Source: an uncultured Planctomycetia bacterium (GTDB lineage: Bacteria; Omnitrophota; Gorgyraeia; B26-G9). From it: a stretch of DNA of 64,000 nucleotides. Location of the stretch: the NCBI GenBank assembly GCA_964437495.1, contig CAYTGV010000004.1:40413-104412 (forward strand), written 5' to 3'. Made by a program: the position numbers and the translations under genes. The notes under the pieces are model-generated. The model did not search any database and was not told the DNA's origin. It worked only from the letters and a program-made list of their open reading frames with translations. Positions 1-36,100 of this stretch are shown here, one piece after another (position 1 is the stretch's first letter; each line of letters opens with the position of its first letter).

Positions 1-408
1 TTAAATAAGTAATTTTGAGAGCTTAGTTCTTAATTTTTCCGCATTCTTAATTTCACATTCCCAAATAGTAATTGTTTTCCAGCCTAGTTTTCTTAAATCT
101 TTTTTGTGCATAACGTCCCTTTTTTTGTTGCGTTCAAGTTTGCGGCTCCAATATGATTGATTGCTTTTCGGGATATTTGCTCTTTTGCATCCTTTGTGCT
201 GATGCCAAAAACAGCCGTGAACAAAAACAACTGTTTTATATTTTTTTAAGACAATGTCTGGTTTGCCCGGCAAAGTTTTTTGATGTAGCCGGAAGCGGAA
301 GCCTAAAGAATGCAGAATTTGTCGAACTAATATTTCAGGCTTTGTATCGGATGAACGGATTAAGCTCATATTCCAGCTTCGTTTTTGAGGTGACAAATGA
401 TCAGCCAT
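1..408 (-). CDS. vsr: Very short patch repair endonuclease (Vsr, G/T mismatch endonuclease)
   Basis: 135-aa ORF with Vsr signature DTKPE...PGKPDIVL...VVFVHGCFWHQH; CAT start codon at 406-408 on the minus strand. No cognate C5-methyltransferase lies within the window on the upstream side. Confidence 0.8.
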   Translation of the reverse strand: MADHLSPQKRSWNMSLIRSSDTKPEILVRQILHSLGFRFRLHQKTLPGKPDIVLKKYKTVVFVHGCFWHQHKGCKRANIPKSNQSYWSRKLERNKKRDVMHKKDLRKLGWKTITIWECEIKNAEKLRTKLSKLLI

Positions 409-839: not shown

Positions 840-889
840 ATATTATATAAGTGCAAAGATTAATACATTACAACTATGAGGAGAGAAAG

Positions 890-1936
890 ATGAGATACAT
901 TATTGATATTACACAAAATCAGTCTGATAACATTCAGAAACTTATTGCTGACGGCAGGTATAGAGATTTTAATCAATTTGTTTGCACTGCTATAGATAAT
1001 CAGCTGCACATTGAAACAGAAGAAATAGGCGGGCATAAGATAGAAAATTTAGGTAGCAAAATTAATGTTTACAAACCAGAAGAACTTTTTGAAATTGATA
1101 AAAGCATAAGCATAAAAACAATCAATATTGATGTGCAGGGGGTAGCGATGCCTGATTTTAAAAATTTATCAGGCTCAGCATATGAAATTGAGGAAAAAGA
1201 TTCTTGGTTGTGGGGCCAAGTTAATAAGATTTTCCCAGTGAAAATTGGTTTAAGGATTTTACTCGCTATGCAGGGAGCAGAAAAAAACATTACTTTGGAA
1301 GAATATAGTAAAAAAGCTACACATATTGCTGCATCTTATGGAACCGGGATTAGATTATATGAAGATAGAAAGAAAAGGCCTAGAGATTTAAGGATTTCAG
1401 CTGGATTACCTAGCGAAGATGCTTTTAAAAGCAAACTTAGATATAAAGGTCAATTTTTGGCATATGTGAGAAAAGACGGCTTAATGGAAGGGGCGATGTC
1501 TTTTTTGAAATTTATTAACTTGTATAAAGATGAAGAAAGCGGACAAATGTGTATTTACTTAACAGGCGCAGGAGTAAAGTTTGCACAAATCAGCAATCCC
1601 GTAATAGATAAGGGGGAGTTCGATAAAAGTTTAAGCAAAGAGGAAATAGCTTTTTATTTGGAGCATATTGCTGAGAATGTTATAGGTGAATATCAAGCAA
1701 TAAAATGGATGCTTGAAAAACTTGAAGAGGGGATATCAGATAGAACCTTGATAAATAGAGAAATGAAAAAAATCTTCAGCCAGCTATGGGGAGGCGCCTC
1801 AGATGCTGTTATTAATACACAGAGAGCAGGGCTGATGTCTAGAATGTATGAATTAAAATTGTATGACAAAGAAAAAGATGCGAATAAAGTTGCGTATTTA
1901 ATTAATGACGCTGGAAAAGAGCTTCTTCGGCAATAA
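890..1936 (+). CDS. Hypothetical protein with N-terminal ribbon-helix-helix (CopG/Arc-like) domain; first gene of a 3-gene operon
   Basis: Track ORF 851-1936 starts at GTG; the more likely start is ATG 890 with GAGGAGAG RBS 8 nt upstream. N-terminus MRYIIDITQNQSDNIQKLIADGRYRDFNQFVCTAIDNQL has an RHH beta-alpha-alpha pattern. The remaining ~300 aa have no family I recognise. Confidence 0.45.
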   Translation: MRYIIDITQNQSDNIQKLIADGRYRDFNQFVCTAIDNQLHIETEEIGGHKIENLGSKINVYKPEELFEIDKSISIKTINIDVQGVAMPDFKNLSGSAYEIEEKDSWLWGQVNKIFPVKIGLRILLAMQGAEKNITLEEYSKKATHIAASYGTGIRLYEDRKKRPRDLRISAGLPSEDAFKSKLRYKGQFLAYVRKDGLMEGAMSFLKFINLYKDEESGQMCIYLTGAGVKFAQISNPVIDKGEFDKSLSKEEIAFYLEHIAENVIGEYQAIKWMLEKLEEGISDRTLINREMKKIFSQLWGGASDAVINTQRAGLMSRMYELKLYDKEKDANKVAYLINDAGKELLRQ

Positions 1937-1953
1937 ATAAGAAGGGATGAAAC

Positions 1954-4347
1954 ATGAAATGTAAACATTGTGGGTATAATAACGCTGAAAGTAATTCTAT
2001 TTGTGATGAGTGTCGCCATTCATTGACTTCTTCAGGGACGCCACAAAACTGGAAAAGTGAAATAGAGCAAGTAGTGGCCACGTATGAGCAAGAACCAGCA
2101 AAAGGATTAGTCCACGGGTTACAAAAAGATGCTATTCAAAATGGTTGGGGGCATAGGGTTAACGATAAAGGTAGGGGGTGGAAATTTACTTTTACTCTGA
2201 AAAAATTCGAGGATGTTACATATTTGCTACTTACGGATGAAGGGACTACTGGATTAACAGGTCCAAATTTAACAACTGAAGAAATTCAACAGGCTGTGAC
2301 TCTCCCCGATGATCATAAGCTAGCTCGTTTTACAGGGATGAAGTGGTCTGGAGGTAGCCAGGGAGTGGGGTTGTATGGCAGAGGAAAGTTACTTTTTCCA
2401 GCTGTATCAAAAGATTGCAAGATATATTTTGATAGTCTTACGGAAAAGGATGGGTATAGATTGAATTACAAAATGCTCATAGGTTCAAGTTATGAAGGAT
2501 CTCCCAAAGCGCTGGAAGGAGAAGAAGCAAAAGATTTAATAAAAAAGCTCAAAATGGAACTACTTTCAAATATCGGCACACGAATAATCATAGTAAATCC
2601 AATACAAGAATTAGTTGAGGCAATAAAGAATGGAGAACTGATAAAAAACATCCAAGAAACATGGTGGCCTATAATAGCGCGGGGAGCAGAAATCTTTTTA
2701 GATATTAATGGGGTAAAACGGATTGTAGGCTTTCCTGAAGAATATTATGATTTACCCGAAAAGCCTGCAAATGGTTGGAAAGTGTGGTTTAGGAAGAATA
2801 TTAAGATTGGTGATGATTATACGATTAGACATATTCATTTGCTTATTGCTCCAAAAAAGATAGATGAAGATTTTAGAGGGATTCATTTGTATCGCCAGGG
2901 CATGAAAACGGGAGGTTTTAATTTTGAAATTCCTCCAAAAATTAAAGATCGGTATTTTGGATATATCGAGCTTGATAGGGGATCCGAACATATGGTAATC
3001 CCGCTTGAAGATATAACTCACTATGGATTCAAGAAGAAAAGAACTACGGAATTCCAGAAAATAAAGCGTTTTATCGAAAGTGACCATAAGGCTTTCATGG
3101 ATCGAGAAGGGCTATTAGTTAAAAAATATTCGAGCGAAGAAAAATTGAAAAAAACTTTTGAAAATAGTTCTAAAATTATCAATGAACTTATCTCTAGCTT
3201 TGGGATTGATAGCGTAGGTGAAGGAGGAATGACGGCTTCATTTATAGTAAGATGGATGGGGATTGATTTTCCAGACGAAGGGAATTCAAAAGTAGTAACA
3301 GGCGAGACTATAAGTAATATAAGATTTAAAATAATTAACAACCAGGGGAGCTGTGAGAGATTTAATTACCAGTTAAAAATTGTTCATAACGACAAAGATG
3401 TAGTTTTAATAGATGAACAATCGGTACCTGTAAATTCTTCTTCAGAAAAAATATTCGGGCCGTACAATGTTAATATTAATGAGCAAGCAATGCCTCGGTA
3501 TGAGAAGCTGTTCATACAGCTGGAGGTTAAAAAGGTAGGCCTTAAAAAACAAATCATAAAGAAAATACCTTTTTTCTATGATTGCGATCCTCAAGATAGG
3601 CCGGAGTTTGGATTCTCAGTCCAAATTGCGGAGGTAAAATTTCCAGGAGGGAATAGTCATAGAGTTAATACGGGCGAAAAAATTACAGGACTTAAATATT
3701 TGATAAAGAATAATACAGCACTGAGAGAAAAGATAGGGATATATATACGCACGCATAATATGACAGAAGGGGGAAACCCTGTAATAGAGGAGATACTACT
3801 CAATAGGGAGGGAATAACAATAGAGCCTTTTTCTGAAGAACTTGTTGAATGTAGGGATATTGATTTTTCAGAAGAGATTTATTTATCGCAAATTGCCAAA
3901 GGGTTGATAGAATTGCGGGCAAGTGTAAGTTCTATGGGTGAAGGAAAGTATGCGCATGCAGATTCAATTTGCAAGCCTTCTAAGATAAAAATATACTTTA
4001 ATGAAAATGAGCCGGGAGTAAGTGTTTTTAATGACTCAGAGTGGAAGAAAGATAAAGGTGGCCCTAGATCAGATTGCTCAGGACAAGGTAAAAACTGGAC
4101 ATTTATTATCAATATAGAACATTCTTGCTATATAAATGCTGAGGAAGAGGGCGAAGAAGCGCGGGACGAGTACTATGTTGACGAAATGCTGAAGCAGACA
4201 GTCAAGATATTATTATTGTCAAACAATTATAAGATTTTCACAAAGGATAAAAAATGGTTTGATAACGAAGAGGTGTCGCCGCCTGAAGTATTTGTAGTCA
4301 TGAATGAAGCATACGACAAATTGCTGGATAAAATACATAGGAGATAA
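1954..4347 (+). CDS. Zn-ribbon + GHKL (histidine-kinase/Hsp90/MORC-like) ATPase-fold protein, 797 aa
   Basis: N-terminal CxxC...CxxC ribbon (CKHCGYN...CDECRH). It is followed by GHKL-like boxes: N box LQKDAIQNGWGHR, G1 LTDEGTTGLTG, G2 SGGSQGVGLYGRGK. Only 18 nt separate it from the upstream gene, with an RBS. Confidence 0.45.
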   Translation: MKCKHCGYNNAESNSICDECRHSLTSSGTPQNWKSEIEQVVATYEQEPAKGLVHGLQKDAIQNGWGHRVNDKGRGWKFTFTLKKFEDVTYLLLTDEGTTGLTGPNLTTEEIQQAVTLPDDHKLARFTGMKWSGGSQGVGLYGRGKLLFPAVSKDCKIYFDSLTEKDGYRLNYKMLIGSSYEGSPKALEGEEAKDLIKKLKMELLSNIGTRIIIVNPIQELVEAIKNGELIKNIQETWWPIIARGAEIFLDINGVKRIVGFPEEYYDLPEKPANGWKVWFRKNIKIGDDYTIRHIHLLIAPKKIDEDFRGIHLYRQGMKTGGFNFEIPPKIKDRYFGYIELDRGSEHMVIPLEDITHYGFKKKRTTEFQKIKRFIESDHKAFMDREGLLVKKYSSEEKLKKTFENSSKIINELISSFGIDSVGEGGMTASFIVRWMGIDFPDEGNSKVVTGETISNIRFKIINNQGSCERFNYQLKIVHNDKDVVLIDEQSVPVNSSSEKIFGPYNVNINEQAMPRYEKLFIQLEVKKVGLKKQIIKKIPFFYDCDPQDRPEFGFSVQIAEVKFPGGNSHRVNTGEKITGLKYLIKNNTALREKIGIYIRTHNMTEGGNPVIEEILLNREGITIEPFSEELVECRDIDFSEEIYLSQIAKGLIELRASVSSMGEGKYAHADSICKPSKIKIYFNENEPGVSVFNDSEWKKDKGGPRSDCSGQGKNWTFIINIEHSCYINAEEEGEEARDEYYVDEMLKQTVKILLLSNNYKIFTKDKKWFDNEEVSPPEVFVVMNEAYDKLLDKIHRR

Positions 4348-5153
4348 TGATGGCAATATTATTCAAGAAAGAGAAAGGCAAGAATATATATAAAGGCATC
4401 GTCGGTAAAGAGCAGATACAGAAAGCCGATAAGCTGTATGAATATTTAGCTGCCAAAATCCCGAGACTAGAAACAGAGTTATCAGAGCAATATGAGAAAA
4501 TTAGCATACAATTTTGGTATTATTTTGGAAAAGGATTAAGAGAAATAGTAGAGAAATTTGATATAGATAACCAAGACAGACAATATCTTTGGGAGGCAAT
4601 TGCAAACTTAGCGGCGTCGGATGTAAGTGTGCGAAAAAATAGATCATCTAATAGAACAAATTATGAGTATTTTTATAGGCTTTCTGAAGTATCTTTAACG
4701 GATGTAGAAAAACTTAATTGGAGTGAGTGGTCTACATTTTTTGATTCGATTACTATAAGAAGAGAAGAAAGAAGTTTCGCATGGTTTATTACTAAGCTTT
4801 CGGATCGCAAGATGGATAGAAAGACAATGCGAACCTTAATGATTGCGATGAATAAAGCTCTAGAGGGTAAAGAAACGTGGATGTATTCCGATGAAGATCT
4901 ATGGAAGAGGTTTAATGCAGCGCTTATGGCGTCCTTGTTTTTAATCAGTAATGCACCCAAAGATAAGATGATACAAAAAAAAACAAATAAGCCCCTATCT
5001 GAGCGGCAGCAAATTGTAAATAAAAAAGCATTACAAAAAAAAACAAAGATCAGGCAAAAATTTTTCAAAGAATTTTTCATGCTAGTAGATTTAAAAGAGA
5101 AGTTAAGCATAGAAGCAATGTGCATAGAAGCTTTTAAAAAAGTTAAAGGATAG
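4347..5153 (+). CDS. Hypothetical protein (268 aa), translationally coupled to the GHKL-like gene
   Basis: The start ATG overlaps the upstream TAA (TAATG at 4345-4349). Lysine-rich C-terminus; no recognisable domain. Confidence 0.4.
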   Translation: MMAILFKKEKGKNIYKGIVGKEQIQKADKLYEYLAAKIPRLETELSEQYEKISIQFWYYFGKGLREIVEKFDIDNQDRQYLWEAIANLAASDVSVRKNRSSNRTNYEYFYRLSEVSLTDVEKLNWSEWSTFFDSITIRREERSFAWFITKLSDRKMDRKTMRTLMIAMNKALEGKETWMYSDEDLWKRFNAALMASLFLISNAPKDKMIQKKTNKPLSERQQIVNKKALQKKTKIRQKFFKEFFMLVDLKEKLSIEAMCIEAFKKVKG

Positions 5154-5299
5154 AGGAGTAGTGAAAATAAAAGAAGGGATATGTGAGGTATAAAGATTTT
5201 ATAGACAATTTGGAAATCCGCAGAACGTTAACGGATAAAGAAGAAACTAAAATGGGTAAAATTTGTTCTGTGACATCAAAAAACAGGAGGACATTAATT

Positions 5300-5500
5300 A
5301 TGAATAAGAATAAGTATTTCTCGGAAGGCACAATCGTTAAATTAAAAAATCCAGCTGACGATGTAGAGGGCAAGGCACTTTTCGAAGTAATTGAAAACAA
5401 AGGTGACAGAGTTGATATCAAGCTCTTAAACACAAAAATGTCTATTCCTCCTGTCGAGTGTGTAAGTATCAACGAAATCGTTATTGCAAATCCGAAATAA
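5300..5500 (+). CDS. Small hypothetical protein (~66 aa)
   Basis: The track ORF 5183-5500 contains an internal ATG at 5300 preceded by AGGAGG (5285-5290). The N-terminal part of the track ORF is therefore probably not translated. Confidence 0.3.
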   Translation: MNKNKYFSEGTIVKLKNPADDVEGKALFEVIENKGDRVDIKLLNTKMSIPPVECVSINEIVIANPK

Positions 5501-5765
5501 AAAAATTCTTTAAGCAAAATCTTCATTATTAACGAAGAGTGCTATTTTTCTTATGCGTTAAGTTTACAGCAAGCGGCTGAAATTAAAAGGCTAGCAAATA
5601 TAGAAAATATGGTGTTATCAGATGGTCGGATTTGCTGATATTATGGACTAAAGAAGACATATTTATAGATAAAAACATGCAAACAAGGGCCAACTTATAT
5701 ATAATTTAGTAAATTTACCGTAAAACAAGATGATCGTGTATTATATGTTAGTGAGAATAAATAAT

Positions 5766-6659
5766 ATGAAAAAAGATTTTGATTATGCTTATTATTTAGT
5801 TGCTTTCGTTGATGTCTTAGGACAAAAAGAAGCGTTTCAAGGCATTACTGATCTTCCTAAAAATGATGAGGCACAAAAAAAGCTAATAAAAGCGCATTCT
5901 AGCACTGTTTTATTTGTCGAAGAACTTAGAGAATGGTTTGACGACTTTTTTAGTAGTTATACTGAAATAAAAGACTCTGAGTTTAAAGTTCCGGAGGAAA
6001 AGAAAGAACAATTTGATGAAATGCGTAAAAGCATTTTAAACCATGCTCGTTTTTCAGATTGTCTCCAGTTTTCTGTTCCTTTAGTTAGCGATAAGAAATA
6101 TTATTCTCCTTGTGTGAATGGTATTTTTGGAATATTGGGTGCTTGTGGTGGAATGCTAATATTGTCTTTAGCCAAGAAAAAACCTTTCAGAGCTGGCATA
6201 GATGTGGGTATTGCCACAGAATTAAGTAGTGGTGAAGTGTATGGTCCAGGATTTTTTAATGCTTATACTTTGGAGAGTAAAATTGCTCAACATCCGAGAA
6301 TTGTAATCGGAGATACACTCATAAATTTTTTACTAAATTTGTCTCATAAAAATTCGCAGATACCAAATCAAACAAAAGAAGACGTAGAACTATGCAAAAT
6401 GTTAGCAGACAATTGCTTACAAATGATTATAAAAGATTTAGATGGACATTTCATTCTGGACTATCTTGGACAAAACTTTCGCGATAATTTCACTAAAAAT
6501 TTAGCTGCTGACGGACAAGAGGCAAATGAAAAAGCATTTAAGCTGGCTTTTGATTTTATTGAAAAAGAATACGAGAAGCTAAATAAAGATAGGAACGAGA
6601 AGCTTAGCTCAAGATATTTTATGTTATACAATTATTTTAAGTCTAGATTAAATCTCTAA
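5766..6659 (+). CDS. Nucleotidyl-cyclase-like protein (class III cyclase / GGDEF / mCpol-type palm domain) with unknown C-terminal domain
   Basis: Motifs YYLVAFVDVLGQKE (metal-binding FxDxxG) and RAGIDVGIATELSSGEVYGPGFFNAYTLESKIA resemble the RxGxhxG...G...VNxAxRxE palm-domain signature of adenylyl/guanylyl cyclases. Start chosen at ATG 5766; the track gives 5730. Confidence 0.4.
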   Translation: MKKDFDYAYYLVAFVDVLGQKEAFQGITDLPKNDEAQKKLIKAHSSTVLFVEELREWFDDFFSSYTEIKDSEFKVPEEKKEQFDEMRKSILNHARFSDCLQFSVPLVSDKKYYSPCVNGIFGILGACGGMLILSLAKKKPFRAGIDVGIATELSSGEVYGPGFFNAYTLESKIAQHPRIVIGDTLINFLLNLSHKNSQIPNQTKEDVELCKMLADNCLQMIIKDLDGHFILDYLGQNFRDNFTKNLAADGQEANEKAFKLAFDFIEKEYEKLNKDRNEKLSSRYFMLYNYFKSRLNL

Positions 6660-6750
6660 CAATTCGCTCCAGGGCAATCGGAACCTGCTCCGAAAAAGCA
6701 GGGTCGGCCTCCTCTGCCTGAGCTCAAATGTTTTATATGAGGAATAAAAA

Positions 6751-7800
6751 ATGAATGATGATAATATTATTACTACGAAAAGCATTGGTGCTGACATAGT
6801 TGATGTTAAAGAAGATTTTATCCTTGATCAAAAGCCAATGTCTCGTTTGGTTTTTCATGCCCAAATACATAGTGAGGGAATCAGAGGACGAATTATCAGA
6901 CAACGTAGAGAATCAACTGAGGATGTTTGGACTCCAGATAAAGTTATAAACATACGTGATTTAGGTAAAAACGAAGCAATAAATATTGAACTTAAAACAG
7001 TGGCAGTGAGAAAACTATATTCAGCGATATTAAAATTATTAAATATTTTGCAACAAAAAGGCATAGCATATGGAGAAAATAAATATGCAGTAGTGAATCC
7101 TGATTCTGTGGTCATTACAGATAAAAATAAGGCTGCTTACATTAAAAAGATTCTAGATGCTGGATATGATGAGGAAGTATGGAATACTCTTGTAGAATCA
7201 AACCCTTCTCTGGTTACGAAGTTATCCTACGCAAGAATACAAAGATCAAAACTAAAAGTAACCAAAGAATTAAAAAATAGATTACAAAAAGGCGGTTTCG
7301 ACGAAACGAAAGGTGATGATTGCTGGCAAAAATGGATATATAAAAACAATTGGTTGTTTGGGGTGAACTACAAAAAACCAATTGAGAAAACAAAAATTAA
7401 TATTGCAGGTGTAATGCCAGATTATCTCTTTCCAACTTTAGATGGATTTATTGACATCTTAGAGATTAAACTACCTGATAATGGAGTAATTGCTAAAGAT
7501 AGCAGTCATTGTGGTTCTTGGAAATTGACATCAGAAACAAATACTGCTATTGGGCAGGTTGTAAATTATTTAAATGAAATTGATAGACTGCGTCTTGAAA
7601 TTGAGAAAATTATAAGAACTCAATATGGTTGTGAAATTAGTTTATTAAAACCTCGTGCGTATATTTTGATTGGAAATAGTACTGGTTGGGATATTGAAAA
7701 AAGAGAAGGATTGCGAAAAATCAATAACGCTTTACATGGCATTGAAATATTAACATATGAAGATCTTCTAAGTAGAGGTTGCGAGGCAACAAAAGAATAG
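6751..7800 (+). CDS. Shedu-like (SduA / DUF4263) PD-(D/E)xK nuclease
   Basis: The C-terminal half has CWQKWIYKNNWLFGVNY ... PDYLFPTLDGFIDILEIKLP ... GQVVNYL, i.e. the D...(D/E)xK plus QxxxY restriction-endonuclease-like core, with the NPWLFG-type motif typical of DUF4263. Confidence 0.5.
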   Translation: MNDDNIITTKSIGADIVDVKEDFILDQKPMSRLVFHAQIHSEGIRGRIIRQRRESTEDVWTPDKVINIRDLGKNEAINIELKTVAVRKLYSAILKLLNILQQKGIAYGENKYAVVNPDSVVITDKNKAAYIKKILDAGYDEEVWNTLVESNPSLVTKLSYARIQRSKLKVTKELKNRLQKGGFDETKGDDCWQKWIYKNNWLFGVNYKKPIEKTKINIAGVMPDYLFPTLDGFIDILEIKLPDNGVIAKDSSHCGSWKLTSETNTAIGQVVNYLNEIDRLRLEIEKIIRTQYGCEISLLKPRAYILIGNSTGWDIEKREGLRKINNALHGIEILTYEDLLSRGCEATKE

Positions 7801-8001: not shown

Positions 8002-9033
8002 ATGGCAAATAAAAAATTAGCCTCTGAAAAAGTAACCTACGAAATAGATCCTTATAATAGACTTATCATTAACAAATCCGGCAAAAAAAGCCGACTCTCC
8101 AGATTTAGGCAGGTTCTTGACGGACGCTTCAAAATCGATAAAGACAATACAGTATCTTATTATATAAAAGCCCCGATGCCTAAAGGTGCGGAAATCCCGT
8201 ATCAGGTTAAACTCCAGGGGAAATGGTCTCTATCCGTTGATCATAACCTGTGCTTGACGCTTAATAAATGGGGCCGGGAAACTCTGGGAGATAAATTAAC
8301 TCTGCAGGCTGATGTAATAGATACATCTAAAAATTCTCTGGTTTTTGCCCTTACCACTACTACAAAAGAAAACACCCAATCAATTTATATCCTCAAACTC
8401 AAAGGAGCATGGCAGGCAGATAAGCACAACCGGCTTACGTTTAGGATTCAGAGAGAGCAGGGAAGCCACGATATCCTGACGTTTAGAGGCGCATGGGAGA
8501 TAAATAAACAGCATCAGATTATTTATCAGTATGAAAAAGCCCAGCTCATCCGCAAACGCAAAAAAATTCACACACTGATTTTTCAAGGCTATTGGGATAT
8601 AAAAGATAAAGGCCGAGTATCTTATATACTTGATCAGCAATCTAACTCTGTTTTTGCCTTCAAAACTAGCATAGGCATATTTAAAGACAAATATATAAAA
8701 TACGAAGTGGGTATAGGCGTTTCTCGTAAACCTAAACCAATAAAGCGTGTGCTTATTCTATTTGGTAAATGGAAAATTAAAAAAAGCGTAGGATTAATAT
8801 TTGAAGTGGAATACAAAAATAAAAAAATCCACGCCATGGTCTTTGGTGCAGAAGCGAAGCTGACTGCCAAAGATAGCATAAGTTTTAAGCTAAAGAATGA
8901 GAAAAATAAAGGCCTTAGCGCGCAGTTGAAACTTTCGCGCAAGATACTAAAAGGAGACGGCTTGTCATTCTTGCGATTTCTGAAATCAAAAGGGGAAAGT
9001 ACTGTTACTATAGGCGCGGGTTTTAGATGGTAG
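8002..9033 (+). CDS. Hypothetical beta-rich protein with internal sequence repeats
   Basis: 343 aa; recurring (F/L)xGxWxI(N/K)K...IxYxY segments. No signal peptide and no family I recognise. Confidence 0.4.
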   Translation: MANKKLASEKVTYEIDPYNRLIINKSGKKSRLSRFRQVLDGRFKIDKDNTVSYYIKAPMPKGAEIPYQVKLQGKWSLSVDHNLCLTLNKWGRETLGDKLTLQADVIDTSKNSLVFALTTTTKENTQSIYILKLKGAWQADKHNRLTFRIQREQGSHDILTFRGAWEINKQHQIIYQYEKAQLIRKRKKIHTLIFQGYWDIKDKGRVSYILDQQSNSVFAFKTSIGIFKDKYIKYEVGIGVSRKPKPIKRVLILFGKWKIKKSVGLIFEVEYKNKKIHAMVFGAEAKLTAKDSISFKLKNEKNKGLSAQLKLSRKILKGDGLSFLRFLKSKGESTVTIGAGFRW

Positions 9034-9198
9034 TAAAAGCAGCGAATAGCGGAGAGCGTTTAGCGATTAGTACAAAAGACAAAAAAAGCGGATAGAAAAA
9101 AAGGCCGCCAAGTGGGCACTTTTAAGTGGACAATGGCGAGCCTCGCCGCAGGAAACTTCAAAGAGGAAACTCGGCGGGAGGGGAAAAAATGGGAAAAT

Positions 9199-9971
9199 TG
9201 GGATGTGTTAAAGATACGTTCAGCGGTAAAGACTATTTAATGCGGGCGTATTTGCCGATCATGAAACTACCTACGAAAATTGATTATACGCCTAAGCTCT
9301 CACCAGTCCGAGATCAGGGGGATGAAGGCACCTGCGTAAGCTTTGCCTGTGCCAGCGGGATGAAGGAATACCAGGAAATACTTGATTATGGAAAATCAAT
9401 AAAGCTTTCCCCGCGGTTTATTTATAGCGAATGCAAAAAGATAGATGGTATGCCGGAATCGGAGGGAACAACTCTTCGTGCAGCAATGCAGGTGCTTAAT
9501 AAAAAGGGAGTTTGTCGGGAAAAATTCTGGCCGTATCAACCGTATCAAACAAACAAAGCGAAGAAAGGTTTTTCTACCAACGCCAAAAAATTTCGCATTA
9601 AGACCTACGCCCGCATTCTCAACTTAAATGAATTACGTTTAAGCCTGGCTAATAAGGGGCCATGTGTTATTGGTGTTCAGGTGTTTGAAGGGATGATGAG
9701 AACAAAGACAGGGCTTGTCCCAATGCCTAAGAAAAAAGAATATCCTTTAGGCGGGCATGCAATTTGTCCCGTAGGATATGATGATAACAAGAAACTGGTT
9801 AAATTTAAAAACTCTTGGTCTGATAAATGGGGGAAGAAAGGGTATGGATTTTTACCTTATGCTTATATTGAAAATCATATGATGGATGCCTGGAGCTCAG
9901 TTGATATTGAAGATCCTAATCCGCTTACGCTGGCAAGCGTGTTGAGTTATAGAGAGAGGGCTTTAGTTTAG
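9199..9971 (+). CDS. Papain-like cysteine peptidase (C1 family)
   Basis: Active-site Cys motif DQGDEGTCVSFA, GGHAICPVGYDD, and NSWSDKWGKKGYGF (the C1 Q...C...H...N-S-W pattern). The in-frame ATG at 9199 with GGGAGGGG RBS is preferred over the longer track ORF starting at 9126. Confidence 0.65.
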
Positions 9972-10054: not shown

Positions 10055-10858
10055 ATGCCAAAATTCGATTTTAATTCGAAAACAAAAAGATATAATGCGA
10101 AAAATGCTTTGCTGTTAGCGGAAGCTTCACAACTAGCATATAAACCCATCCGAGAAGTGAAGGCGATAGTAAAGAGTAAATGGGGCTTCGAAGAATGCAT
10201 CTTTTTGGACAAGGAAGATACCCAAGCTTATATTATCGCTAACACTGAAGTGATTATATTAGCCTTTAGAGGGACTCAATGTATTCAGGATTGGTTGACA
10301 GATGCAGACGTGCGGCTAATTAAGGATGCCTGGGGGCAAGTGCATAAAGGATTTTCAACAGCGTTAGATTCTGTTTGGCGCGAGATTGAAAAAATTGTAT
10401 CTAAATATCAAAACAATGGCCAATCAATTTGGATTACAGGCCATAGCTTAGGGGCAGCACTGGCAGCGCTCGCGACTGCTAGGTTTTTGCAGAAAAACAG
10501 GGACATAAACGGACTGTATACTTTTGGCCAGCCTAGAGTAGGCAATGCTATATTTGCTAGAATCTTTAATTTAAGGTTTAAGCATCGAACCTTTCGTTTT
10601 GTTAATAATGAAGATATTGTAACCAGAGTTCCTCCTACCGCTTTGAAATATGCGCACATAGGCTCTGTGTATTATTTTAACAGTTTTGGAAAGCTGCACA
10701 GAGGAATTAAGTGGTGGAGAGTATTTATGGATAGTTCGATTAGTAAAATAGCGAGAACTATGGATCGCTATAATCTGTTAAGCGACCAATTTCCTAACGG
10801 GATTAAAGACCACGATATTGCAAGATATATAAAAAGAATTGAGAAAAATTTAACATGA
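10055..10858 (+). CDS. Lipase class 3 (alpha/beta-hydrolase, fungal-lipase-like)
   Basis: Nucleophile elbow ITGHSLGAALAALA with surrounding lipase_3 context; no signal peptide. The stop TGA overlaps the next ATG (ATGA). Confidence 0.7.
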   Translation: MPKFDFNSKTKRYNAKNALLLAEASQLAYKPIREVKAIVKSKWGFEECIFLDKEDTQAYIIANTEVIILAFRGTQCIQDWLTDADVRLIKDAWGQVHKGFSTALDSVWREIEKIVSKYQNNGQSIWITGHSLGAALAALATARFLQKNRDINGLYTFGQPRVGNAIFARIFNLRFKHRTFRFVNNEDIVTRVPPTALKYAHIGSVYYFNSFGKLHRGIKWWRVFMDSSISKIARTMDRYNLLSDQFPNGIKDHDIARYIKRIEKNLT

Positions 10859-12336
10859 AATATAATTTCGCGAGAATAGTTATTATAGTCTCTGCGTTGT
10901 TTTTAGTAACAGCAACAGCCTTCTGTTTTTCCGCGGATGTGCAGGATATAAGCGGCTCTAAATATTTCCCCGCCGTGCAAGAGGCTATTGCTAAATCCGA
11001 AAAATCAATAAACATGGCAATGTTTCTTATTGAACTTCCGCAGAGTGAAGCCAAGAATAAGACACAGCAATTAGTAAATGAACTGATCAAAGCGCATGAA
11101 AGAGGCGTGAAGGTCGAAGTTATTTTAGATCAGAATGTAGATTTTGTTAATCAAAGGCATGAAAGCGATTGGCTGGGAAAAGTAAGAAGTTTTCGCGCGT
11201 ACAAGCAGCTTAAAGAAGCTGGGGTAGAGGTGCAGTATGATGAAATATCTACATATACTCATGCCAAGGCAATAGTGATCGACGAGAAGATAGTTGTTTT
11301 AGGAAGCACTAACTGGACCCAAACATCATTACAACGAAGCATAGAGACTAACGTTCTAATAAATTCAGAAGAAGCGGCAAAAAGCTATTTAGAATATTTT
11401 AAGACAATTGAAATAGATGAAAGTATTGAAAAATACATTGAATTTTTAAAAAGCGGAATTGCAGTAAGTAATAAGTTTATGCAGTCAGCAAAGCTGGGTC
11501 CGGAAATGATGAAGCAACATGATGAGCGCAGTTTTGATATATATTTGTTTCTGCTAAAAGAAGCCAAAGCTAAAAACACAACAGAGCTGGTGCTAAATTA
11601 TGGGGCAATAGCGGAATATCTTGGTATCGACAAAAAGATGGATAAAATCGCCTATCGTAGGCAAATAACAAAGGTTTTGAGGAAGTTAGAAAAAAAGTAT
11701 AAATTGATTAAAGCTGATTTGCAGTACGCAAAAGACGCAAAGGTGAAACTACTTGATAGTAAAGTGGCTGCGAATAAGGTATTTCATCTACCAAAAGATT
11801 ATTTTAGTTTTGGATGGAACATGCAATTATCTATGCGGGCGAAGTTCTGTTATTTAATAAACTTTAGCGAAGCGAATATAAGCGATACCCAACCTTATTG
11901 GTCAAAGAGCGTGAGAGAAATCACCAAGACCTATGGCAATATAAGCAAGGATGTTATATCTAAAGGCATGGGTGAGTTGAGAAGAAGAAAGCTCATTGAG
12001 GTCATGTATGATGATTTAACGGATAAGGATTATAGAAAACGAAGCCCGAAGATGTATAAAGTTTTAAAAGTATATGATTCTGAAAAATTAGACCTTGATT
12101 TAGCGCGGGTAGCGGAACAATATGGAGACAAAGAATATCAAAAGGCACGGAAATACGCTGAAATAGTATTTGAAGAATACAATCCGCAGATAATAGAAGA
12201 TATAATTTTGAAAACAAAGCAATATGGGTCTAAGAAAGTCAAAGACGCGTTTGCAATTGTTGCGAAGAAGAACGTAGACAATCCGAAAAGAAAATATAGT
12301 TATGTTGTTGGGATATTGGAGAATTGGGGGGAGTGA
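10855..12336 (+). CDS. Phospholipase-D-family (single HKD motif, Nuc-like) protein with N-terminal signal peptide/TM and C-terminal wHTH-like domains
   Basis: HAKAIVIDEKIVVLGSTNWTQTS matches HxKx4Dx6GSxN. The hydrophobic N-terminus is IVIIVSALFLVTATAFCFSA. The C-terminal ~290 aa are rich in helix-turn-helix-like segments. Confidence 0.55.
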   Translation: MKYNFARIVIIVSALFLVTATAFCFSADVQDISGSKYFPAVQEAIAKSEKSINMAMFLIELPQSEAKNKTQQLVNELIKAHERGVKVEVILDQNVDFVNQRHESDWLGKVRSFRAYKQLKEAGVEVQYDEISTYTHAKAIVIDEKIVVLGSTNWTQTSLQRSIETNVLINSEEAAKSYLEYFKTIEIDESIEKYIEFLKSGIAVSNKFMQSAKLGPEMMKQHDERSFDIYLFLLKEAKAKNTTELVLNYGAIAEYLGIDKKMDKIAYRRQITKVLRKLEKKYKLIKADLQYAKDAKVKLLDSKVAANKVFHLPKDYFSFGWNMQLSMRAKFCYLINFSEANISDTQPYWSKSVREITKTYGNISKDVISKGMGELRRRKLIEVMYDDLTDKDYRKRSPKMYKVLKVYDSEKLDLDLARVAEQYGDKEYQKARKYAEIVFEEYNPQIIEDIILKTKQYGSKKVKDAFAIVAKKNVDNPKRKYSYVVGILENWGE

Positions 12337-12346
12337 ATAGATAAGT

Positions 12347-12979
12347 ATGACAATAATGATCGAAAATAAAAAATTTTTCGGTTTTGCAGATCACGACTAT
12401 AAGGAAATAGTAACGCTTTCTGTAGAAGGAAAAATTAAGTGGTTCGAGTATCGCTTTAATAAGATTATAATTCGGCCAATTGAAGATATTATGAAAATTG
12501 TAGCTAAAGAGCAAAAAAAACCTCAAGGAGCAAAACTTCTAGAAGATGAAGATGTTTCGATTTTTACAATTGTTGTTTTAGCTATTTGTGTGGGAATAGA
12601 TTTGCTTGGGGGATTTCTCGATGGGACCAAAGGGGATACTAATCGAAAAACCTTTAAGAATTTTGTGACTCAATTTTTAGATCCACAAAAAGAGTATTTA
12701 AAAACTCCCTATGAGGGGGCACACACATATGCAACATTTTTATATATGAAATTCCGTTGTGGCTTAGCCCATAATCTTACAATAAAAGAAGTAGGTTTTA
12801 CATATGGAGAAAAATATTTTGTCAAAGGCGATGGTTTTTATTATGTAAGTGTTGATAGATTGTTTAAAGATTTAAAGCGGGGGTTGGAGCAGTATTTATC
12901 TGAACTTTCCCGGAATAAATCTAATTTAAAAAGAAATTTTAATGATCGTTTTGAGCATATTTTTATCAGGAAGAAATAA
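12347..12979 (+). CDS. Hypothetical protein (210 aa)
   Basis: Lies 10 nt downstream of the PLD-like gene; no recognisable motif. Confidence 0.4.
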   Translation: MTIMIENKKFFGFADHDYKEIVTLSVEGKIKWFEYRFNKIIIRPIEDIMKIVAKEQKKPQGAKLLEDEDVSIFTIVVLAICVGIDLLGGFLDGTKGDTNRKTFKNFVTQFLDPQKEYLKTPYEGAHTYATFLYMKFRCGLAHNLTIKEVGFTYGEKYFVKGDGFYYVSVDRLFKDLKRGLEQYLSELSRNKSNLKRNFNDRFEHIFIRKK

Positions 12980-13035: not shown

Positions 13036-14358
13036 ATGAATCACTTAAGAGAGCTTAAAAAATATTTCAAGGGGATTCTTCTTGTTAAGAAGAATAAGAC
13101 GCAGGAATTATCTCCACTTGCAGGGATTATGATAAGGGAAATTCCCCAAGAATTTCGCGATAAGGCAATAGAACATTACAAGGCTTCATTTTTAACTTTA
13201 GATGGAAAGGAATTAAACGGGTTCAAGTCAATATTGAAAAAACTGCGCAAGGATATAGCTACAGAATACCTAAAAGATAAAGAACTAGAAAAAAAAGTAT
13301 GGTTTTTGTTTTGTGATATATTTATTAACAAAGACAAGTATGATTGTAAGGAGGTTTTTGAAAAGAGACTAAAAGATTTTCTTACGGAGATATGTAAACC
13401 GTTAAAAAGCTATGAGATATCATTTTGTATAATTCATCTTCAGTTAAATTCCCCTATATCAATTTGGGGGACTGAAATAAAAAAATTATTAGAGGATGAT
13501 TTTAAAAACATAAAAATAAATCCAAAAGATCTCATGGGAGCCAAAGTTGTTAGCGAGTTTAAGGGAAAGGCAGTGATTCAAATACCAATGTCAGGTAATA
13601 ATGAGAATTTAGCAATTGAAAGGGCGAGAGAAAGAGCGGAATTAGTTTTAAAAGCAGTTCAGACTTATCTTAGTGATCATATGAGTATTCGTGACGAAAA
13701 TTTATTATTTAAAATTTCTGAATTTGCATTGATTAGAGATATTCAAACACAAAAATGGAGTTGGAATTGGAAAGCTAAGAGAAAGCCGTATGGGCTAAAA
13801 ATCGGCGGGACAGACAGAGATTTTATTGATAAAGCTGAAAGCCATTACAAGATAGCAAAGCAATGCGATAAAAAACTACTTTCCATATATGAAAGGGCTG
13901 TATATTGGACAGCTCGTTCAATAGAGGAAGAAGACTTGGATACTAAGATAATTTATTTATGTATAGCACTAGAAGCTTTACTGGCAAGTAAGGATGATAA
14001 GAGAAAAGGGGAAGTGATTGCTTATCGTATGGTTCTGATAAATCATTTAATTGATGGCAATTTTCCAGATCCTTTTAAAATAATGTGGTTTTATGAGATA
14101 AGATCTAAAGTGGTTCATGGGGCGACTTTGTTTGGGGCTACTAATTCAGACTGTTTAACTTTACAATATATGGTTAGAAAAACATTATTTAATTTCGTTG
14201 CTTTGACAGAAAAATACAAGGTGAAAATGTATAAGAAATTTATAAAAGCAGTAGAAACTCCTGAAAATTTAAATCTGATATGCAATCATTTTAAACTTTT
14301 TAAAGGGAAATGGCCTGACTCAATAATAGAAATATTAGAAGAGAAATTGAAAAAGTAG
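13036..14358 (+). CDS. HEPN-like (Rx4HG) domain protein, putative abortive-infection-type RNase
   Basis: The C-terminal helical domain contains EIRSKVVHGATL (R-x4-H-G) preceded by AVYWTARSIEE...IALEALLAS, a pattern typical of HEPN/Abi/Apea-like families. The N-terminal 280 aa are unknown. Confidence 0.35.
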   Translation: MNHLRELKKYFKGILLVKKNKTQELSPLAGIMIREIPQEFRDKAIEHYKASFLTLDGKELNGFKSILKKLRKDIATEYLKDKELEKKVWFLFCDIFINKDKYDCKEVFEKRLKDFLTEICKPLKSYEISFCIIHLQLNSPISIWGTEIKKLLEDDFKNIKINPKDLMGAKVVSEFKGKAVIQIPMSGNNENLAIERARERAELVLKAVQTYLSDHMSIRDENLLFKISEFALIRDIQTQKWSWNWKAKRKPYGLKIGGTDRDFIDKAESHYKIAKQCDKKLLSIYERAVYWTARSIEEEDLDTKIIYLCIALEALLASKDDKRKGEVIAYRMVLINHLIDGNFPDPFKIMWFYEIRSKVVHGATLFGATNSDCLTLQYMVRKTLFNFVALTEKYKVKMYKKFIKAVETPENLNLICNHFKLFKGKWPDSIIEILEEKLKK

Positions 14359-33182: not shown

Positions 33183-36100
33183 ATGAAAAGACAAAATAAA
33201 AAACCTCAAAAAATAATCGCGATTATACTAGTGCAATCATTCTTAATCAGTAATCTTGCCTGGGCCGGGACAAGTTCTGTTTTTTTAGCTAAAAATAAGA
33301 ATATAGCTACTCTTTCGCCGCAAACGATTATTAGCACAACTGCTTTTCAACAAGCTTGTGCCACTTATGCTTTTTGGAGTAAGCGTGTTCCAGGAATAGA
33401 TGCTTTGTCGCAAAAATACACAAATGCCAAAATGACTCAAGAGGCCTTAAATGCTATTCCTAAACAATACTGCACTGATTTTTATTTAAATCGAAGTTTT
33501 GTTAAAGGTGGTAATCCGATACTATATGAGGCGTGTAACCGTTTTAGCATAAAAGTTCCTAAATTAAAATATACTGATGTGCATGTAGTTTATACAAAAT
33601 TAAAAACCATACTAGAAAAAGATAGAACTGCTAAGGCCCTTAAAAGAAAAGTTAAAGATGGCGGGGATTCGAATTTATTAAAATATATTTATAAATACAA
33701 AAAAGAGTTAAAGGATATTTATGGGTTTGAATTACAAACTGATATTCAGCATGCAAAATATGATACGCCGAAAGCAGTATTTGATGCATTAATGGAAGTT
33801 CCAGAAAAAAAGCGTACTCGGAAACTGCTTGGTCGCAGCAAAGAAGATAAGGGTAATGTCACACTTTTAAGATGGTATGTAAAATTTGAAGCAGAAATTC
33901 TTAAAAAATATGATTATTATATACCCAAAGAACACACTAGCCGTCCGGCAGTAGAATATAATTCTGCTAAGGATGTTTATGATGCGTTAATGGCTTTAAA
34001 GCCAAAACAAAGAACTATGGATTATCTGGATCGCTCAGTGAAAGAAGGGGGTGACCGGAGATTATTAACGGCATATCGTAAATATAAAAAGGAAATTAAG
34101 CAAAAATATAAAATAGAAATAAAACGCCGGGAAATTGATAAGCTTTACGGAACATGGCAAGCAACATATCAAGCATTAATGCAGATCCCGGAACAACGGC
34201 GGACTACCTGGCATCTTAACCAGCCGAAATTGGAAAAGGGAAACAGGACCCTGTTAAAAGCAGCACGTGCTTTTAAAAAGCAATTAAAAGAGAAAAAAGG
34301 TTTTGAGCTGCCAGTACAGGAAAATCCGCTGCTTAATCAGTCCTTAAAATATCCTGATCCAAAATCTGTATATGAGGCTATAATTGCCCGAGATGAATCA
34401 GATCAAACTGTAAAAAGCTTAGATCGCATAATAGACGAGGATGGAGACAGAAAATTACTGGAACGTTATTATGTTTTTGAAGAGCAGATAAAAGAACTTT
34501 TTAATTATGAGCTAAAGCGGGATAAGGGTAAGTACGCAGAGACAAAAGATATTTATAATGCGATTATGGCGCGCCAACCAGAACAAAGGACTAGGCAGGC
34601 TTTAGATAAAGATAAAAAATACTTTGGAGACAGGTGTCTGCTTAAACGCATATTAGCTAAAGAAAAAGAATTACTTGAAGAATTTGGATTTGTCCTGGAA
34701 AAAGAAAAATATCAAAGGCCTTTAAAATATCCAACTCCTGAATCAGTTTATCAGGCGTTAATGGCGCGTGATTCGCAACTGCGTACAGTTGTGGCTTTAA
34801 AAACAAGCAAAGCGAATAAAGGCAATCGCGTGCTGCTTAAAGCCTATTATGAACATAAATTTGAAATCGCCAGAAAATTTCATTTTACTTTACCCAAAGC
34901 TAATGCGGCAAGTTATCCTGATTTTAAAATTACCTATAAAGCGCTGATGGAACTATCTCCGGAACTGCTTACCGCAAAAAGCCTGGATCGACCGGATCAG
35001 GAATACGGTAATAGAAGTTTGCTTAAAGCTTATCGTAAATTTAAAAAAGAATTACGTGAAACTTATGGATTTGTAATGCCCAAAGCGCAGCGTAAAAGAA
35101 TTGCAAAATATCAAACGCCGGAGGATGTCTATCAAGCAATAATGGCGCGGCCTGAAAATGAGCGGACCCAGACTAGCTTAAGGCGTAAAAAAGATGATGA
35201 TGGCGACCCGGCATTATTAAAAGAATATTATAGACATAAACAAGAGATATTTGAAAAATATGGTTTTAATTTAACGCAAGAAACAGAACCCATGTATCCG
35301 GATGGAAAAAGCACAAAAAAAGCATTAATGGAATTACCCGAAAAAGATCGCACTACCAAGCGCCTGGATGAATTAGGTTTATACTCATTACGCAAAGCTT
35401 GTAATAATTTTGAAATCCCTTTGCCAAAAGAAGAAAAGGCCTTAGATTATCCGGATCGGGAATCAGCGATTGCGGTTCTGAAAGAGATTCCCCTAAGAGA
35501 TCGTACTGCAGCGCGTTTACGCAGAAAAACAGAAGACGGGGGTAATCCTACATTATTGAATAACTGTTATAAATATGCGATTCGCTTACCTAAAGAAGAG
35601 GTAATGCAAGCCTATCCGAAAAAACAAAAAGTATTAGATGACTTAGCCAAATTATCAGAGCAAGATAAGTTGCCGAGCCGTCTTAGCCGTCAGCCATCAA
35701 AAGGAGGAAACCCTTTATTGTTTTTAGCCATCCTTGAGCATGAAATAGAGTTACCGAAAGATCAAAGAAAATATCCGAATAAGCGGCTGGCAGAAATGAT
35801 GTTAAGCCGGCTGCCGAAAAGAATGCGTACTGCTAGAATGCTCCACCCAACAAGAAATCCCTACGGAGAAGGTGATTATACGCTGTATATGCGGTGTTTA
35901 GAATTTAAAATACCTTTGGAAAGAGAACCGTCTGAATTTATTTATCCTACAGTTGAAGCAACATACAAAGCTTTAAAAGCAATACCTAAAGAAAAACGAA
36001 CCCGTACGCATTTGATGCTGCCTAAAGATACAGGAGGAGATCCAACGCTTTATAATGCATTTAAAAGATTTAGAAAAGAATTAAAACAAAAATATAATTT

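Follow-up and report, generated by a model that had tools for sequence, protein, structure and literature searches.

A pair of adjacent genes is the subject of this study, located in a 64,000-nt stretch of DNA (hereafter the window) from an uncultured Planctomycetia bacterium (contig CAYTGV010000004.1 of assembly GCA_964437495.1, positions 40,413 to 104,412 of the forward strand); one of them encodes a small protein with the predicted fold of class III nucleotidyl cyclases and the other a Shedu nuclease. The first gene, at 5766..6659 on the plus strand, was recognized from the list of open reading frames (ORFs), its homologues, an AlphaFold2 (AF2) model and Foldseek comparisons as coding for a stand-alone protein with a fold like that of the class III cyclase homology domain (CHD). 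A previous reading of this DNA, made from the sequence alone, had described a 298-amino acid (aa) cyclase- or mCpol-like protein at this position; the ORF is borne out, and the length of its product is 297 aa plus the stop codon. The alignment of homologues, which begin at MKKDF.Y, favours the ATG at 5766 as the start and gives no support to two further ATGs upstream (5730 and 5745).

The second gene, sduA (6751..7800, plus strand, 349 aa), is identified by PADLOC and Pfam as a canonical single-gene Shedu nuclease. The protein matches the PADLOC model PDLC00390 with an E value of 1.6e-89 over residues 5-343 and the Pfam family SduA_C (PF14082) at 1.8e-21, together with a weak SduA_N match (3e-3), and the strings NNWLFG, DILEIK and Q..Y are all found in it, DILEIK being the D...E-x-K nuclease string. 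These sequence matches indicate a DUF4263/SduA_C nuclease domain with a PD-(D/E)xK core; the DUF4263 signature had already been recognized in the sequence-only reading. Its homologues number 558 at E ≤ 1e-20, and the best 120 of the 558 are 322-380 aa long and carry PF14082 only, apart from one that adds PF21407 (SduA_N). By these comparisons, the protein is a typical member of a uniform and widespread subfamily of ~349 aa that is self-sufficient elsewhere; in its full-length match to the PADLOC model and in its single-gene size it is like other Shedu proteins, and nothing notable differs.

The two genes are separated by a spacer of 91 nt (6660..6750, plus strand) bearing a GAGGA ribosome-binding site for sduA. 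The gap had been given as 90 nt following a weak hairpin; the estimate was short by one nucleotide, and the hairpin, whose fold is not better than those of shuffled sequences (z = -0.94), was rejected as a terminator or regulator. Since no terminator-like site was called in the spacer either, co-transcription of the two genes is possible, but uninformative. On the other side, the 265-nt spacer upstream of the cyclase-like gene (5501..5765, plus strand) contains one promoter-like site (5615-5644, TTATCA-18-TATTAT, TG-extended), and its conservation was sought in homologous loci and not found. More generally, no conserved non-coding DNA flanks the genes of the cyclase-like family among the homologous loci, and neither a tRNA nor an Rfam RNA was found in the 64-kb window; a flanking non-coding element of the kind associated with retron- or DRT-type palm enzymes was accordingly considered and rejected.

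Fold and active site of the cyclase-like family

Searches of Pfam with the cyclase-like protein (E ≤ 0.1) returned no cyclase, GGDEF, mCpol or other relevant family, and PF00211 gave no match; NCBIfam, PADLOC (E ≤ 0.1) and PDB sequences (phmmer) gave no match, a profile of the family matched no cyclase among the PDB sequences, and 16 further family members scanned against Pfam (E ≤ 0.01) gave no cyclase-family match. An hhalign comparison of the family with a PF00211 consensus produced no signal, and the sole match in PHROGs was phrog_23933, annotated as of ‘unknown function’. The mCpol, GGDEF and Guanylate_cyc assignments that the sequence-only reading had entertained have therefore no counterpart at the profile level in Pfam.

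The AF2 model, built on 34 homologues, has a predicted local distance difference test score (pLDDT) of 92.5 and a predicted template modelling score (pTM) of 0.90. When it was compared with the PDB by Foldseek, the 50 best matches were all class III adenylyl or guanylyl cyclase catalytic domains, including those of CyaC, CyaB, Rv1900c, Rv1625c, soluble guanylyl cyclase and mammalian adenylyl cyclase (AC), with a probability of 1.0, a best E value of 2.6e-4 and template modelling (TM) scores on the target of 0.5-0.64. In BFVD, a library of viral structures, the best matches were cyclase-domain proteins too, with a GGDEF protein ranking lower. The model thus has the predicted β-α-β-β-α-β palm of the CHD, and this predicted fold favours the class III branch over the Cas10/mCpol or GGDEF branches; the proposal of a cyclase-type palm with an Asp pair, first made from the motifs, was right. 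We consider that the whole polypeptide is probably a divergent class III cyclase catalytic domain with three helical additions, and attach a probability of about 0.7 to this explanation as a whole, which includes the independence of the two genes discussed below.

Of the helical additions, the first is a long helix (residues 34-66), the second an inserted helix (204-219) and the third a hairpin of helices at the C-terminus (248-292). The ~110-aa C-terminal portion, which had been taken for an uncharacterized domain, is probably only partly extra: the last ~50 aa, with the two long helices at 248-292, resemble an add-on, whereas residues ~179-235 look, by secondary structure and motif order, like the β6 to β7/β8 end of a cyclase with an inserted helix. 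In this part helix α4 is followed by P-R-I-V-I-G and then by a β-hairpin bearing D224-x-D226-G.

When 1.84 billion representatives of clusters at 50% identity were searched with a profile, 5180, 1752 and 970 of them were recovered for the family at E ≤ 1e-3, 1e-10 and 1e-30, respectively, and 194 word-indexed homologues of the protein are all labelled ‘hypothetical’. Nearly all members are 285-310 aa long, and the domain therefore corresponds to the entire protein. The distribution is patchy over more than 10 phyla and without synteny.

The conservation of residues was read from an alignment of 256 family members. R142, G160, E170, P177 and R178 are invariant (256/256), and Q20, S97, Y159, A174, D224, D226, Y284 and Y290 are each more than 95% conserved. 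The presumed first metal-binding Asp, D16 (codon 5811..5813, plus strand), lies in the motif F-[IV]-D-V-L-G-Q at the end of strand β1 and is an Asp in 255 members, the remaining row being a gap; the presumed second, D98 (codon 6057..6059, plus strand), lies in the motif F-S-D at the turn of the β2-β3 hairpin and is likewise an Asp in 255 of the 256 aligned members. By their position in the model, and not by superposition, these two residues presumably occupy the places of the metal-binding Asp residues of class III cyclases. The strings AFVDVLGQKE and RAGIDVGIATELSSGEVYGPGFFNAYTLES, from which the cyclase assignment had first been proposed, are both found in the protein, and the invariance or near-invariance of their key residues across the family shows that they are not chance strings.

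The class III consensus, as in PF00211 and Rv1625c, is R-x-G-x3-G followed by W-G-x3-N-x-A-x-R-x-E-S. The corresponding block of the cyclase-like gene (6189..6296, plus strand) encodes R142-x-G-x3-G ... Y159-G-P-x3-x-A-Y-x-L-E170-S ... P177-R178, in which R142-x-G-x3-G and Y159-G-x5-A166-x3-E170-S keep the class III spacing. E157 (E or D in 96%) provides an acidic residue at the place of the adenine-specifying Asp. In the register set by G160, A166 and E170, position 164, equivalent to the Asn, is variable (F/Y/A/S/E/N), and so is position 168, equivalent to the Arg (E/K/H/D/T/A); the transition-state Asn/Arg pair on helix α4 (V-N-x-A-x-R-x-E) is therefore not conserved in the family. The role of this pair may be taken over by the family-specific invariant residues R178, D224, D226, Q20, Y284 and Y290.

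Compared with known systems, the family is closest to the class III CHD (PF00211; CyaC 1wc0, CyaB 3r5g, Rv1900c 1ybt, Rv1625c 7yz9), with which it shares the predicted fold, this being the sole source of significant structural matches, and the order and spacing of the motifs (the Asp at the end of β1, the Asp at the β2-β3 turn, R-x-G-x3-G and [WY]-G-x5-A-x3-E-S). It differs in the absence of profile-level similarity, in the variable transition-state Asn/Arg positions, in a shorter dimerization arm, in the three helical additions, in lacking a regulatory domain and in having D-x-D-G where a Lys-bearing β7-β8 hairpin is found in the CHD. With mCpol, or OptS of Panoptes, a palm cyclase of the Cas10 type, the protein has in common that it is a small stand-alone palm-domain protein in defence islands, and the D-x-x-G-Q string after β1 recalls the Cas10 string D-x-S-G-I-Q. 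However, Pfam gave no mCpol profile match (E ≤ 0.1), F-S-D-[CS] stands in place of G-G-D-D, and the structural matches are class III cyclases and not Cas10. Panoptes is furthermore defined by an adjacent 2TM or CARF-TM effector (PMC12657218, PMC13577387), whereas no membrane effector of the 2TM-β or CARF-TM kind adjoins the gene and no conserved neighbour exists in 98 loci of the family. PycC, the class III-type pyrimidine cyclase of the anti-phage system Pycsar, is also a cyclase-fold enzyme encoded in defence islands; it always has an adjacent effector binding cyclic nucleoside monophosphates (cNMP), while the cyclase-like family has no conserved neighbour and its member in the window matches no PADLOC model, PycC included (E ≤ 0.1).

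A few members of the family bear on the question of dimerization. Three representatives of ~600-640 aa (P0139, P0147 and P0152) are tandem duplications. In all three the N-terminal copy is without D98 (G or N in its place), in two of the three D16 is replaced by E, and in P0139 and P0152 E170 is replaced by A as well. The C-terminal copy of P0139 and P0152 keeps D16, D98 and E170 (the second copy of P0147 lies outside the alignment inspected), and R142 and Y-G-P are retained in both copies of these two proteins. The model of P0139 (pLDDT 81.8, pTM 0.84) matches best 6yii, a class III AC-like ATP-binding protein of P. aeruginosa, the soluble domain of AC9 and human soluble AC, which are single-chain two-domain cyclases; the matches extend over 555-587 columns with TM scores on the target of 0.43-0.49, and the geometry is only roughly the same, with a large overall root-mean-square deviation. 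In mammalian AC, with its C1 and C2 domains, and in soluble guanylyl cyclase, one of the two symmetric sites of the head-to-tail dimer decays. The degenerate first copy of the fusions shows the same C1/C2-type asymmetry, from which a head-to-tail dimer can be argued; by this analogy, the pattern argues for an Asp pair that would function in catalysis and for a protein that would act as a dimer. At one further locus (L062:4734-6534) two paralogues are adjacent and the Asp pair is kept in both.

The same residues can be read as those of a catalytically dead pseudo-cyclase, a nucleotide-binding sensor or scaffold like 6yii. The variability of the Asn and Arg positions of helix α4, the rank of 6yii as top structural match of the tandem member P0139 and the lack of profile similarity to active cyclases all agree with it, but the Asp pair and R142 are strictly conserved over 256 diverged sequences and the loss of the Asp residues is confined to one tandem copy, as for a catalytic centre that is in use. 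Furthermore, enzymes with GGDEF and Cas10 palms are active without the Asn/Arg pair. We regard a dead enzyme as rather unlikely.

Relation to the neighbouring Shedu gene

The linkage between the two genes of the window was examined from both sides. On the side of the cyclase-like family, 98 loci with 94 distinct ORFs were available from genomes and metagenomes of many phyla, of which 78 extend 1.1 kb or further on the downstream side of the gene and 74 do so on the upstream side, and SduA was detected in none of the 98 by phmmer or by a profile of the window’s SduA subfamily. On the side of Shedu, none of 80 metagenome loci encoding SduA relatives 45-74% identical to that of the window (434 kb, 56 loci with at least 1 kb upstream) contained a member of the cyclase-like family, even at E ≤ 10. 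The closest homologues of the cyclase-like protein, at loci L005, L006 and L007 (74%, 74% and 61% identity), have other neighbours and no SduA. In the literature, a survey covering the neighbourhoods of 5,499 Shedu genes names restriction-modification (RM) systems, BREX, transposons and prophages, and no cyclase. Conserved co-localization of the two families was thus not observed in either direction (0/98 and 0/80), and the 80 loci without a cyclase-like gene agree with the literature in presenting Shedu as a single gene without an obligatory partner.

Because the two families were never neighbours in the other loci compared, the cyclase-like gene and sduA are best explained as two independent and unrelated genes standing side by side in one defence island, and it is to this independence, jointly with the assignment of the fold, that the probability of about 0.7 applies. 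The regulated Shedu variant put forward by the sequence-only reading, which had itself made conserved linkage the touchstone, does not survive the reciprocal counts and the survey. In such a two-gene system the cyclase-like protein would make or consume a nucleotide that switches the adjacent SduA on or off. The shared orientation, the gap of 91 nt and the absence of a terminator would suit it, and a precedent exists in KELShedu (KELA and KELB), a two-component Shedu in which a DUF4263 nuclease works with an upstream partner gene and is inhibited by physiological levels of nucleoside triphosphates (NTPs), so that a neighbour consuming NTPs is conceivable. However, the partner in KELShedu is a 12.6-kDa protein that binds double-stranded DNA in a complex with the nuclease and is unrelated to the 297-aa cyclase-fold protein encoded upstream in the window, a protein not linked to Shedu elsewhere. 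Moreover, SduA of the window is matched over its full length by the stand-alone PADLOC model and carries no additional sensor domain, and the surveyed Shedu neighbourhoods contain no such partner. Taken with the absence of co-occurrence, this makes a two-gene Shedu highly improbable.

Genomic contexts of the family and the window island

Several comparisons were made in search of a partner gene for the cyclase-like family, and the idea of a conserved one was rejected. Clustering of the neighbours by blastp (1e-4, ±4 genes, 85 loci) gave no shared cluster. The same-strand neighbours fell by Pfam into 63 families for 37 upstream genes and 55 for 33 downstream genes, each occurring once among those listed, and no Pfam or PADLOC family was found in more than three of the 148 neighbours taken from 74 loci (±2 genes); a single weak DUF4263 match could lie outside the matches listed in these Pfam and PADLOC comparisons. 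When the genes of the window’s island were searched by phmmer against all family loci, only a phospholipase D (PLD) gene in two loci and Vsr in one were matched. The other possibility raised by the sequence-only reading, a separate cyclic-nucleotide system with a distant effector, is a conceivable one; in the loci examined by blastp, Pfam and PADLOC, the family has no effector or receptor gene as a constant companion, and the protein does not have the Asn/Arg pair of true cNMP cyclases.

The neighbours that were recognized are a mixture of housekeeping genes and of genes of defence or of mobile genetic elements (MGEs), the latter being type I and IV RM, MADS, several PADLOC candidate systems, IetA, PD-T4-6, Mrr, PIN and HEPN_LA2681, and at several loci (e.g., L056, L070 and L085) the family gene is flanked on both sides by genes of the opposite strand. 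At L085:1-12894, and also at L086-L088, it occupies one end of an integrative element that also carries an integrase, an excisionase-like HTH_17 protein, AAA_25 replication and small-terminase-like genes; the layout of the L085 element recalls phage satellites, with copies of the insertion sequences IS21 and IS3 inserted alongside. Type I RM, a D5 primase and a serine recombinase surround the gene at L177, while the island at L178 reads Dcm / MORC-like ATPase / HNH / Vsr / PLD ... Fic / AbiE. Large plasmids are among the carriers, plasmids contributing only four distant solo copies, and the family is nearly absent from phage collections, with two IMG/VR contigs, no INPHARED match and none in phage genomes. 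Two carriers are cultured, Pseudomonas sp. RIT-PI-r and Amphritea opalescens ANRC-JH13.

Two associations recur on a small scale. A homologue of the window’s PLD protein is encoded directly upstream of the family gene at L178 (E 8e-169) and, with a weaker match, downstream at L010 (4e-28); the presence of PLD with the cyclase-like gene in three of the 98 loci is probably co-travel in islands. In a small sub-clade (L180:438-1991, L181:1-1239, L089:899-2425, L182:588-2114), the cyclase-like gene and a gene for a 212-aa protein with the conserved string F-K-G-L-R-D-x-E-I-H are either separated by 4 nt, the latter lying downstream (L180, L181), or joined into one, as in P0049, P0093 and P0387; an apparent frameshift divides the cyclase part in L182 and L183. 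With ~6 members, the partner family is matched by no Pfam model, and the extension of the fusions P0049 and P0093 was set aside as a functional clue, the family being tiny and its Rx4H motif HEPN-like only by eye.

These associations could be taken to mean that, as in CBASS and Pycsar, the family generates a signal for an adjacent effector that is exchanged between loci, with Shedu as the effector in the window, PLD at L178 and L010 and the 212-aa protein at L180. The adjacency of PLD, the close or fused LRDxEIH partner and the presence of Mrr, PIN and HEPN_LA2681 among the other neighbours point in this direction. Nevertheless, most loci have no plausible adjacent effector, many neighbours being housekeeping genes or lying on the opposite strand; no nucleotide-sensor domain (cNMP-binding, SAVED, CARF) is found among the top families listed; the neighbouring defence genes are themselves complete known systems; and the 212-aa family is very small. 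An arrangement of this kind is improbable.

A role in ordinary cellular signalling, in which the protein would be a regulatory cyclase without part in genetic conflicts and its position in an island accidental, draws on the housekeeping genes that flank some loci and on the near absence of the family from phage collections. It is unlikely, given that the sensor or regulatory domain usual in bacterial class III cyclases is missing, that the family is scattered over more than 10 phyla without synteny and that its genes recur as cargo in integrative elements, on plasmids and in defence islands.

The locus in the window is itself a defence island, where unrelated systems routinely adjoin. On longer public contigs the order is a C5 methylase (Dcm), an NgoFVII-like restriction endonuclease and Vsr, followed by four genes without family match, the cyclase-like gene and SduA, and then by a 343-aa protein without family match, Peptidase_C1, Lipase_3, PLDc_2 and two more unmatched genes. 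Vsr, a very-short-patch-repair endonuclease, stands at the edge of the window (1-408, minus strand) and is preceded on L172-L174 by the C5 methylase and the NgoFVII-like enzyme; the three form a type II RM module that opens the island. The four-gene cluster between this module and the cyclase-like gene (851-5500, plus strand) comprises ORFs at 851-1936 (361 aa), 1954-4347 (797 aa), 4347-5153 (268 aa) and 5183-5500 (105 aa). The 797-aa protein has a zinc-ribbon-like N-terminus of the CxxC...CxxC type, and the start of the ORF at 4347-5153 overlaps the preceding stop. No significant match to Pfam, NCBIfam, PADLOC or PHROGs was obtained for the cluster, nor to PDB sequences for the 797-aa protein, and none of its members recurs beside the cyclase-like family elsewhere; the cluster could be an undescribed multi-gene defence system.

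Directly after sduA, the 343-aa protein (8002-9033, plus strand) is repetitive and β-rich, with segments of the ‘LTF.G.W.I.K’ type, and has no family match. It is followed on the plus strand by the run of Peptidase_C1 (9126-9971), Lipase_3 (10055-10858) and PLDc_2 (10855-12336), the last two sharing 4 nt. In the PLD protein (493 aa) the N-terminus resembles a signal peptide and the C-terminal extension is long. Next come proteins of 210 aa (12347-12979, plus strand) and 440 aa (13036-14358, plus strand) without Pfam match, which contain the HEPN-like R-x(3-4)-H strings FRCGLAHNL and IRSKVVHGA and may add to the defence genes found there. Over positions 1-64000 nearly all long ORFs are on the plus strand, two of them very large (33183-39059, 1958 aa, and 42098-47122, 1674 aa), and the GC skew is positive across the window except at ~31-33 kb and ~57-58.5 kb, the sites of two long minus-strand ORFs.

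Proposed activity and significance

Taken together, the family profile and its contexts suggest that the cyclase-like gene encodes a stand-alone, horizontally mobile and most likely dimeric enzyme that would use NTPs by a two-metal mechanism, and it is a candidate for a function in defence, or for an accessory one, exerted by a single gene; from the contexts such roles, accessory or anti-phage, are plausible. Like all class III cyclases, the protein would dimerize head to tail, and it would bind an NTP through two metal ions on the Asp pair D16/D98 and through R142 at the phosphates. The reaction would be a nucleotidyl transfer or a cyclization, and its chemistry or product would probably be unlike plain 3′,5′-cNMP synthesis, because the ribose/transition-state Asn-Arg pair is replaced. 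The enzyme would act without a dedicated neighbouring partner and, to judge by where its gene is found, would have a mobile accessory role that is possibly anti-phage.

Some points weigh against this interpretation. The sequence-level link to any cyclase family is absent in Pfam PF00211, in the profile search of the PDB and in the hhalign comparison with the consensus, and the equivalence of residues was drawn from motif spacing and the order of secondary structures, not from a residue-level superposition. The Asn/Arg pair of competent class III cyclases is missing, and the protein could therefore be inactive or merely bind nucleotides. With regard to the independence of the two genes, SduA was sought with a subfamily profile only, so that a very divergent DUF4263 protein could be missed. 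Finally, MutS, ribonucleotide reductase and tRNA synthetases are encoded beside the family gene at some loci, and a defence role is not established.

A more specific proposal, which we advance tentatively and hold to be open to considerable doubt, is that of a self-contained single-gene enzyme of immunity or of competition between MGEs: a class III-fold dimer with a rebuilt site (the Asp pair, R142, R178, D224 and D226, without Asn/Arg) that upon infection would make an unusual nucleotide or drain the NTP pool with no dedicated effector, and that in a few lineages would have become coupled to the 212-aa LRDxEIH protein or to a degenerate duplicate copy of itself.

Shedu is already known; what is new at this locus is a large family of class III fold, unannotated in the libraries searched, with an altered active site and no partner. 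A pairing of the cyclase-like protein with Shedu would have meant a nucleotide-regulated Shedu, and its recognition as a coincidence of neighbourhood avoids a wrong annotation. The two cultured carriers make the family testable. If active, it would represent a new branch, and possibly a new chemistry, for the cyclase superfamily and would become a candidate member of the expanding set of single-gene defence enzymes.

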